In this document: positions 36,287 through 37,600 of the stretch, one piece after another
Layout: each line of letters begins with the position of its first letter
Position numbering within the stretch: position 1 is the stretch's first letter
DNA from: Teseptimavirus T7
DNA: 41,194 bases
Strand: one strand, 5' to 3'
Sequence record: PP384395
Made by a program: the position numbers and the translations under genes
The notes under the pieces: model-generated
What the model was told of the DNA's origin: nothing
Databases searched by the model: none
Seen by the model: the letters and a program-made list of their open reading frames with translations, nothing else

Positions 36287-36346
36287 AAACACGTGGCAAA
36301 CATTCCAAACCGGAGCCATACAGTACAAAGCACTCTTAGGCCTCTG

Positions 36347-36507
36347 TACCCACGCCGAAACAAGCGCTCATGAGCCCGAAGTGGCGAGCCCGATCTTCCC
36401 CATCGGTGATGTCGGCGATATAGGCGCCAGCAACCGCACCTGTGGCGCCGGTGATGCCGGCCACGATGCGTCCGGCGTAGAGGATCGAGATCTCGATCCC
36501 GCGAAAT
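36347..36507 (+). other. Plasmid backbone fragment (pBR322 tet-region sequence that lies upstream of the T7 promoter in pET-type vectors), includes a BglII site at 36488..36493
   Basis: acccacgccgaaacaagcgctcatgagcccgaagtggcgagcccgatcttccccatcggtgatgtcggcgatataggcgccagc...gatcgagatctcgatcccgcgaaat recognised as pET vector sequence; not T7. Confidence 0.85.
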
Positions 36508-36530
36508 TAATACGACTCACTATAGGGAGA
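36508..36530 (+). promoter_or_regulatory. Second, cassette-borne copy of the T7 phi10 promoter with gene-10 leader/RBS (36531..36586); no lac operator
   Basis: ttaatacgactcactatagggagaccacaacggtttccctctagCaataattttgtttaactttaagaaggagatataCCATGG; one mismatch to native leader in the XbaI site, NcoI at the start codon. Confidence 0.95.
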
Positions 36531-36586
36531 CCACAACGGTTTCCCTCTAGCAATAATTTTGTTTAACTTTAAGAAGGAGATATACC

Positions 36587-37297
36587 ATGGTGAGCAAGGG
36601 CGAAGAAGATAACATGGCCATCATCAAGGAGTTCATGCGCTTCAAGGTGCACATGGAGGGCTCCGTGAACGGCCACGAGTTCGAGATCGAGGGCGAGGGC
36701 GAGGGCCGCCCCTACGAGGGCACCCAGACCGCCAAGCTGAAGGTGACCAAGGGTGGCCCCCTGCCCTTCGCCTGGGACATCCTGTCCCCTCAGTTCATGT
36801 ACGGCTCCAAGGCCTACGTGAAGCACCCCGCCGACATCCCCGACTACTTGAAGCTGTCCTTCCCCGAGGGCTTCAAGTGGGAGCGCGTGATGAACTTCGA
36901 GGACGGCGGCGTGGTGACCGTGACCCAGGACTCCTCCCTGCAGGACGGCGAGTTCATCTACAAGGTGAAGCTGCGCGGCACCAACTTCCCCTCCGACGGC
37001 CCCGTAATGCAGAAGAAGACCATGGGCTGGGAGGCCTCCTCCGAGCGGATGTACCCCGAGGACGGCGCCCTGAAGGGCGAGATCAAGCAGAGGCTGAAGC
37101 TGAAGGACGGCGGCCACTACGACGCTGAGGTCAAGACCACCTACAAGGCCAAGAAGCCCGTGCAGCTGCCCGGCGCCTACAACGTCAACATCAAGTTGGA
37201 CATCACCTCCCACAACGAGGACTACACCATCGTGGAACAGTACGAACGCGCCGAGGGCCGCCACTCCACCGGCGGCATGGACGAGCTGTACAAGTAA
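36587..37297 (+). CDS. mCherry: mCherry red fluorescent protein (synthetic reporter, mammalian-type GC-rich codons)
   Basis: 236-aa [56 protein letters not shown]...GGMDELYK matches mCherry. Confidence 0.97.
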
Positions 37298-37348
37298 CTC
37301 GAGCGAGCTCCCGGGGGGGGTTCTCATCATCATCATCATCATTAATAA
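37298..37348 (+). other. Polylinker (XhoI, SacI, SmaI) plus untranslated 6xHis codons and tandem stops, downstream of the mCherry stop
   Basis: ctcgagcgagctcccgggggggg ttct catcatcatcatcatcat taataa; mCherry stop taa at 37295..37297 precedes it. Confidence 0.9.
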
Positions 37349-37391
37349 AAGGGCGAATTCCAGCACACTGGCGGCCGTTACTAGTGGATCC
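37349..37391 (+). other. Cloning-vector polylinker scar (TOPO/pCR-type: EcoRI, SpeI, BamHI)
   Basis: aagggcgaattccagcacactggcggccgttactagtggatcc. Confidence 0.75.
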
Positions 37392-37450
37392 GGCTGCTAA
37401 CAAAGCCCGAAAGGAAGCTGAGTTGGCTGCTGCCACCGCTGAGCAATAAC

Positions 37451-37497
37451 TAGCATAACCCCTTGGGGCCTCTAAACGGGTCTTGAGGGGTTTTTTG
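37451..37497 (+). terminator. Second, cassette-borne copy of the Tphi terminator (pET T7 terminator region 37393..37497)
   Basis: 105-bp block gctgctaacaaagcccgaaaggaagctgagttggctgctgccaccgctgagcaataactagcataaccccttggggcctctaaacgggtcttgaggggttttttg identical to native 24107..24211. Confidence 0.95.
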
Positions 37498-37600
37498 AAA
37501 GGGGCCGTCAATATCAGAAATAAGACGACGACCCTCGAACGATGATGCTCACTCTCGGAAAGACGTGTAGTCCACGGATGGACTCTCAAGGAGGTACAAG

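Follow-up and report, generated by a model that had tools for sequence, protein, structure and literature searches.

The bases that join the inserted cassette to T7 between genes 17 and 17.5 of the window (the whole stretch of DNA analysed, 41,194 nt, sequence record PP384395) are almost certainly two 60-bp synthetic orthogonal overhangs, called oho1 and oho2 in the authors' primer names (OHO1 and OHO2 below), left from the construction of the genome. The sequence is the complete genome of the engineered phage T7-mC-g17-o from PHEIGES (Levrier et al., Nat Commun 2024; PMC10933291), where mCherry was placed downstream of genes 1, 10 and 17, and T7_mC-g17-o is entered as GenBank PP384395 in Supplementary Data 6 of that paper (PMC10933291). 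The overhangs are passive construction scars, without an intended biological role in the phage; as published design elements they are already known and do not constitute a biological novelty. The identity with the primers, the fragment sizes, the comparison with the sibling constructs and the absence of the overhangs elsewhere were computed here, while the assembly mechanism and its purpose are taken from PMC10933291.

The open reading frame list and the alignment to V01146 place the end of gene 17 (tail fibre; 34625..36286, + strand, same as V01146 up to T7 36285) at the TAA stop codon 36284-36286, the last base of which (36286) corresponds to T7 36285. Gene 17.5 (holin; 37601..37804, + strand) is unaltered and begins with a GTG start codon at 37601. 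The two genes are separated by 1314 nt, against 58 nt in wild-type T7 (V01146 36286-36343), the native spacer length of about 58 nt that the preliminary description had given correctly. In the comparison with V01146, the left match ends at 36286 (T7 36285) and the right match begins at 37557 (T7 36300). A stretch of 15 nt (T7 36286-36300, TTGGTAAATCACAAG) is swapped for a cassette of 1271 nt (36287-37557), made up of OHO1 (60 nt), the T7p14-mCherry amplicon (1151 nt) and OHO2 (60 nt), after which native T7 sequence is back from 37558 (T7 36301). The alignment alone gives 44 native nucleotides and not 43, since the synthetic block ends in a G and T7 36300 is a G too, which makes 37557 ambiguous by one base; the boundary at 37557/37558 was set by the primer design. 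Thus defined, the surviving spacer amounts to 43 of the 58 nt and lies entirely downstream of the cassette (37558..37600, + strand, T7 36301-36343), with none of it in the upstream 60 nt, and it still contains the Shine-Dalgarno sequence of gene 17.5 (AAGGAGGT, 37588-37595, + strand). Neither 36287-36346 nor 37498-37557 matches V01146 36286-36343, and T7 36286-36300 is absent.

The preliminary description had located recognisable vector sequence at about 36347..37497, which left 60 nt upstream (36287-36346) and 103 nt downstream (37498-37600), and the plasmid matches (query 61-1211) agree with these limits. The 163 nt outside the vector match consist of 43 nt of native T7 and 120 nt that are neither T7 nor vector (36287-36346 and 37498-37557). 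The estimate of about 100 nt assignable to neither source was therefore right about the existence of such bases and too low in number, and the premise that the whole 58-nt spacer had been kept does not hold, since 15 nt were lost and the remaining 43 nt are all downstream. The idea that both flanks might be entirely native T7 is contradicted by the V01146 alignment. The alignment to the T7 reference and to plasmids, which had been proposed as a check, yields breakpoints at 36286/36287, 36346/36347, 37497/37498 and 37557/37558.

Over the whole genome, the only differences from V01146 are an additional A at 1897, an A>G change at T7 22629 and the replacement at 36287-37557, in accordance with the length of the record (39937 + 1 + 1271 - 15 = 41194). 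The A added after 1896 and the A>G change at 22629 are differences between the authors' T7 stock and V01146 (PMC10933291); they are the sole differences outside the cassette, and the backbone matches that stock. The extra A at 1897 lies inside the "possible gene 0.6B" (1636-1972) of the V01146 annotation and upstream of the gene 0.7 coding sequence (2021-3100), though PMC10933291 places the change in gene 0.7. The A>G change, found at 22630 of the window (V01146 22629), falls in the gene 9 scaffolding protein and is given in PMC10933291 as N227S in the purchased T7 DNA stock.

The primers that define the junctions are listed in Supplementary Data 2 of PMC10933291. Primer gp17-oho1-as joins the reverse complement of OHO1 to the final 24 nt of gene 17, oho1-mcherry-s is OHO1 followed by TACCCACGCCGAAACAAGC, oho2-mcherry-as is the reverse complement of OHO2 followed by the end of Tphi, and gp17-oho2-s is OHO2 followed by GAAAGACGTGTAGTCCACGG (Supplementary Data 2, PMC10933291). 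In the notation used there, the 60-mers are non-annealing upper-case tails, and the lower-case parts of the mCherry primers anneal to the plasmid (PMC10933291). All of these primers map onto the window with no mismatch: gp17-oho1-as at 36263-36346 (- strand; annealing part 36263-36286), oho1-mcherry-s at 36287-36365 (+ strand), oho2-mcherry-as at 37478-37557 (- strand) and gp17-oho2-s at 37498-37577 (+ strand; annealing to the first 20 nt of 37558..37600). The fragments that they delimit are also the expected ones, as T7D1 (30510-36346, 5837 bp) and T7D2 (37498-41194, 3697 bp) equal their published sizes. The mCherry amplicon measures 1271 bp from primer to primer (36287-37557) versus 1266 bp in Supplementary Data 2, which is the sole discrepancy with the paper.

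The composition of the overhangs themselves (OHO1 at 36287..36346 and OHO2 at 37498..37557, neither with an assigned strand) bears the marks of design. OHO1 is made up of three 20-mers (AAACACGTGGCAAACATTCC, AAACCGGAGCCATACAGTAC and AAAGCACTCTTAGGCCTCTG), as is OHO2 (AAAGGGGCCGTCAATATCAG, AAATAAGACGACGACCCTCG and AACGATGATGCTCACTCTCG). Read in this register, the six 20-mers have a GC content of 45-50% and nearest-neighbour melting temperatures of 54.6-55.2 °C, with a standard deviation of only 0.24, compared with 2.3-4.7 for tilings shifted by 5, 10 or 15 nt and 4.5 for random T7 20-mers. They also stand in strict alphabetical order. This fits a design to a common annealing temperature, with the 20-mers picked from the start of a sorted list. 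The PHEIGES authors cite the orthogonal primer library of Subramanian et al. 2018 (their ref. 45) as the source of the overhangs (PMC10933291), and on the basis of this citation we infer that each 20-mer belongs to the Subramanian list of 166 validated primers; the 20-mer sequences are absent from the main text of Subramanian 2018 (PMC7445780) and from searchable papers.

Neither 60-mer is meaningfully similar to the T7 genome. When they were compared with the rest of the 41,194-nt genome (blastn-short), the best match of OHO2 was 11 nt long and that of OHO1 10 nt, with E values of about 0.4 or worse. An internal duplication or rearrangement of T7 sequence was considered as a source of the blocks and rejected, as all matches in the same comparison were at chance level, none being longer than 11 nt. 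A sensitive blastn search of 50,697 phage records with OHO1 and OHO2 gave no match except in PP384393 and PP384397, and a blastn search with 11-nt words gave no match among 72,556 plasmid records. Exact scans found neither the full 60-mers in viral contigs nor internal stretches of 41 and 43 nt of the overhangs in a collection of one bacterial or archaeal genome per species (185,579 species). Coincidence can be discounted: each 60-mer recurs letter for letter as a published primer tail and beside the same cassette in sibling GenBank records.

The two phage records in which the overhangs recur are the sibling constructs T7_mC-g1-o (PP384397) and T7_mC-g10-o (PP384393), which share the mCherry cassette and OHO1 with the present genome, OHO2 being shared with PP384397. 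According to megablast, PP384397 ("recombinant T7_mCg1o") carries the cassette with both overhangs at 100% identity over 1271 nt after gene 1, and PP384393 ("T7_mCg10o") carries the cassette with OHO1 after gene 10A. The same overhangs flank the cassette at other loci and are therefore part of the cassette design rather than specific to the locus. The siblings differ from the present genome in where the cassette sits, which is after gene 1 in PP384397, splitting phi1.1A, and after gene 10A in PP384393. The latter also lacks OHO2 and T7 24069-24101, the Tphi of its cassette being fused to the native Tphi region from 24102. Some further features of these records can be mentioned. In PP384397 (about 1481-2790; T7 5824-5864), the split of phi1.1A reads CAATACGACTCAC, cassette, ATAGAGGGAC; T7 base 5844 is dropped, and the record annotates only phi1.1B downstream. 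In PP384393 (feature at 2625-3835; T7 24069-24210), OHO1 follows directly after the gene 10A stop codon. The deposited length of this record is 40943 nt versus a designed length of 41145, and the shortfall of 202 nt equals OHO2 (60 nt) plus T7 24069-24210 (142 nt). The loss apparently came about by recombination, or by annealing, between the two 109-nt copies of Tphi.

Between the overhangs lies the core of the T7p14-mCherry amplicon (36347..37497, + strand, 1151 nt). Similarity to pET-type plasmids covers query 61-1211 of 36287-37600, which is exactly 36347-37497. Its first 140 nt (query 61-200, 36347..36486), upstream of the promoter, are a fragment of the tet(C) gene with 100% identity in many plasmids. 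This fragment is a relic of pBR322 shared by pET-type vectors, and from the pBR322/pET layout we take its coding direction to be that of the minus strand. It is too short for function and could trigger resistance-gene matches in automated screens. Further downstream come a second copy of the phi10 promoter with its 5' leader and ribosome binding site (36502..36585, + strand), within which the promoter scan places the T7 promoter consensus at 36508-36530 (+ strand), and the mCherry coding sequence (36587..37297, + strand; 236 aa plus TAA). The latter matches mCherry chains of the PDB over its whole length (E = 1.9e-161), and the same coding sequence is annotated as mCherry in the sibling records. 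The stretch at 37298..37348 (+ strand), in which XhoI/SacI/SmaI sites, GGGS-HHHHHH and a TAATAA remnant can be read, is presumably the pIVEX2.3d polylinker, an assignment with which the primer name "pIVEX2.3d-seq1-s" agrees. The GGGS-His6-TAATAA remnant comes after mCherry's own TAA; it is therefore never translated and is vector baggage. The core closes with a second copy of the Tphi terminator region (37390..37497, + strand, equivalent to T7 24102-24210 with a 1-nt gap; 99.1% identity over 109 nt). The Tphi hairpin with its U-run (about 37457-37497, + strand) has a predicted RNA folding energy of -23.7 kcal/mol (z = -3.2) and ends at 37497. As for the origin of the core, its first 19 nt are identical to primer "pIVEX2.3d-seq1-s", which is the plasmid-annealing part of oho1-mcherry-s, and the amplicon template is plasmid T7p14-mCherry (PMC10933291 primer table). 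The vector, for which the preliminary description had suggested pET or pCR, is indeed pET-like; it is a pIVEX2.3d-type backbone (T7p14-mCherry) rather than pET or pCR as such.

The cassette copies of the T7 signals form direct repeats with the native ones. The phi10 promoter and leader repeat is 84 nt long with 1 mismatch (TCTAGC vs TCTAGA; 36502-36585 against native 22882-22965), and the Tphi repeat is 109 nt long with 1 gap (37390-37497 against native positions of about 24103-24211). Both cassette repeats are about 13 kb away from the native copies and bracket, together with them, the essential genes 11-17. A deletion by recombination between these repeats would kill the g17 phage, unlike the g10 sibling.

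Considering that the 60-mers adjoin vector-derived sequence on both sides, and that polylinker remnants are present inside the cassette, they could be thought of as extra vector or polylinker sequence that came in together with the cassette, from pET, pCR or a recombination donor plasmid. This is the best surviving of the other explanations, and it is nevertheless very improbable: the plasmid match reaches precisely from 36347 to 37497 and no further, neither 60-mer was matched in the 72,556 plasmid records even with 11-nt words, and both are the non-annealing tails of published primers.

Somewhat less probable still is that the blocks served as homology arms in an in vivo recombination, or that they have a function, for instance as barcodes, as protospacers for CRISPR counter-selection or as insulators. 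Engineered phages are often built in this manner, and the preliminary description had itself put forward homology-arm design sequence or a linker. It was correct in that the blocks are designed overlaps borne by PCR primers; they are, however, not homologous to T7, having been chosen to match nothing there. With 11 nt or less in common with the rest of the T7 genome, they cannot direct recombination into it. Arms identical to the flanks of the insertion were looked for specifically, and what was found is that the 60-mers are the same at three loci and have no T7 match. The workflow described in PMC10933291 is moreover purely in vitro (exonuclease III annealing), with less cross-talk as the purpose of the overhangs. 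Locus barcodes are contradicted by the use of the same two blocks at all three loci.

Strain-specific natural variation between T7 genes 17 and 17.5, which had also been suggested and for which nothing speaks beyond the position of the blocks beside native sequence, has a negligible probability, as the T7 records among the matches listed all have a contiguous 58-nt spacer, the 60-mers match only the two engineered siblings among the 50,697 phage records and have no exact match in viral or genome contigs, and the same blocks accompany the cassette where it is placed after gene 1 or gene 10.

The overhangs are best accounted for by the in vitro assembly of the genome. In PHEIGES, PCR fragments of T7 are reassembled into a genome by a brief exonuclease III digestion, annealing and cell-free expression, and orthogonal oligonucleotides were added to the fragment ends in order to stop the "leak" of wild-type phage and to lower the cross-talk between overlaps (PMC10933291). 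For the present construct, T7D1, ending at the stop codon of gene 17, received OHO1 as a primer tail, and T7D2, which leaves out the first 15 nt of the 17/17.5 spacer, received OHO2 in the same way. In the mCherry amplicon from T7p14-mCherry, OHO1 was attached to the 5' end and OHO2 to the 3' end. T7D1 is linked to the cassette through OHO1, and the cassette to T7D2 through OHO2 (PMC10933291). Exonuclease III bares single strands, allowing the fragments to pair via the 60-nt overlaps, and the annealed genome is then expressed and repaired in the cell-free TXTL reaction. As OHO1 and OHO2 are unlike T7 and presumably unlike each other, T7D1 and T7D2 should have no shared overlap and be unable to anneal in the absence of the cassette. 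The product lacks the 15 nt that separate the two T7 primer sites. Every viable genome would by this scheme carry mCherry and no wild-type phage would arise, that is, the assembly would be leak-free.

Regarding possible effects on the phage, OHO2, the added Tphi and the loss of 15 nt of spacer are all located directly upstream of the holin gene 17.5. A scan for T7 promoters (up to 3 mismatches) from the inserted Tphi (ending at 37497) to phiOR (40469-40491) found none, and genes 17.5, 18, 18.5 and 19 therefore need read-through of the added terminator. The transcription that reads through must start from phi17 and from the cassette promoter. It is conceivable, if rather doubtful, that OHO2, the added Tphi and the 15-nt loss together alter the read-through or the translation of the lysis and packaging genes 17.5-19, and thereby shift lysis timing or fitness of this reporter phage. 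An altered lysis timing or fitness, if true, would be a property of the engineered construct and not a new natural element.

The value of these results is limited to curation, the record being a laboratory construct whose junction bases are documented primer-borne overhangs. The exact breakpoints, including the 15-nt deletion in the spacer, may help annotators and re-users of the phage. For genome scans, the marks of design to look for are 60-nt blocks that directly flank vector sequence, consist of alphabetically ordered iso-Tm 20-mers and are missing from the natural collections searched; such blocks are not to be treated as biology.

Synthetic overlaps that are unlike the genome are used to order fragments in Gibson, SLIC and exonuclease III assembly and with "unique nucleotide sequence" linkers, and they stay in the product as scars. 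Compared with Gibson- or SLIC-type assembly, PHEIGES uses exonuclease III and annealing only, the gaps and nicks presumably being sealed in the TXTL reaction, and its product is a linear phage genome and not a plasmid. The overhangs also resemble the library of Subramanian, Russ and Ranganathan (Synth Biol 2018; PMC7445780), which consists of mutually orthogonal 20-nt primers designed to a common annealing temperature. The likeness lies in the 20-nt units, the uniform calculated melting temperature, the GC content of 45-50% and the lack of similarity to the genome and, presumably, to each other; the difference is that three primers are joined here into one 60-nt overlap, whereas the library is used as primers for PCR de-multiplexing. 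The closest known system is the leak-free junction design of PHEIGES itself (T7-mC-g17-o), with which the present genome has in common the backbone, the stock mutations, the insertion site, the cassette, both overhangs, the primer-exact junctions and the fragment sizes, the only difference being the size of the amplicon (1266 bp in the table, 1271 bp in the sequence).
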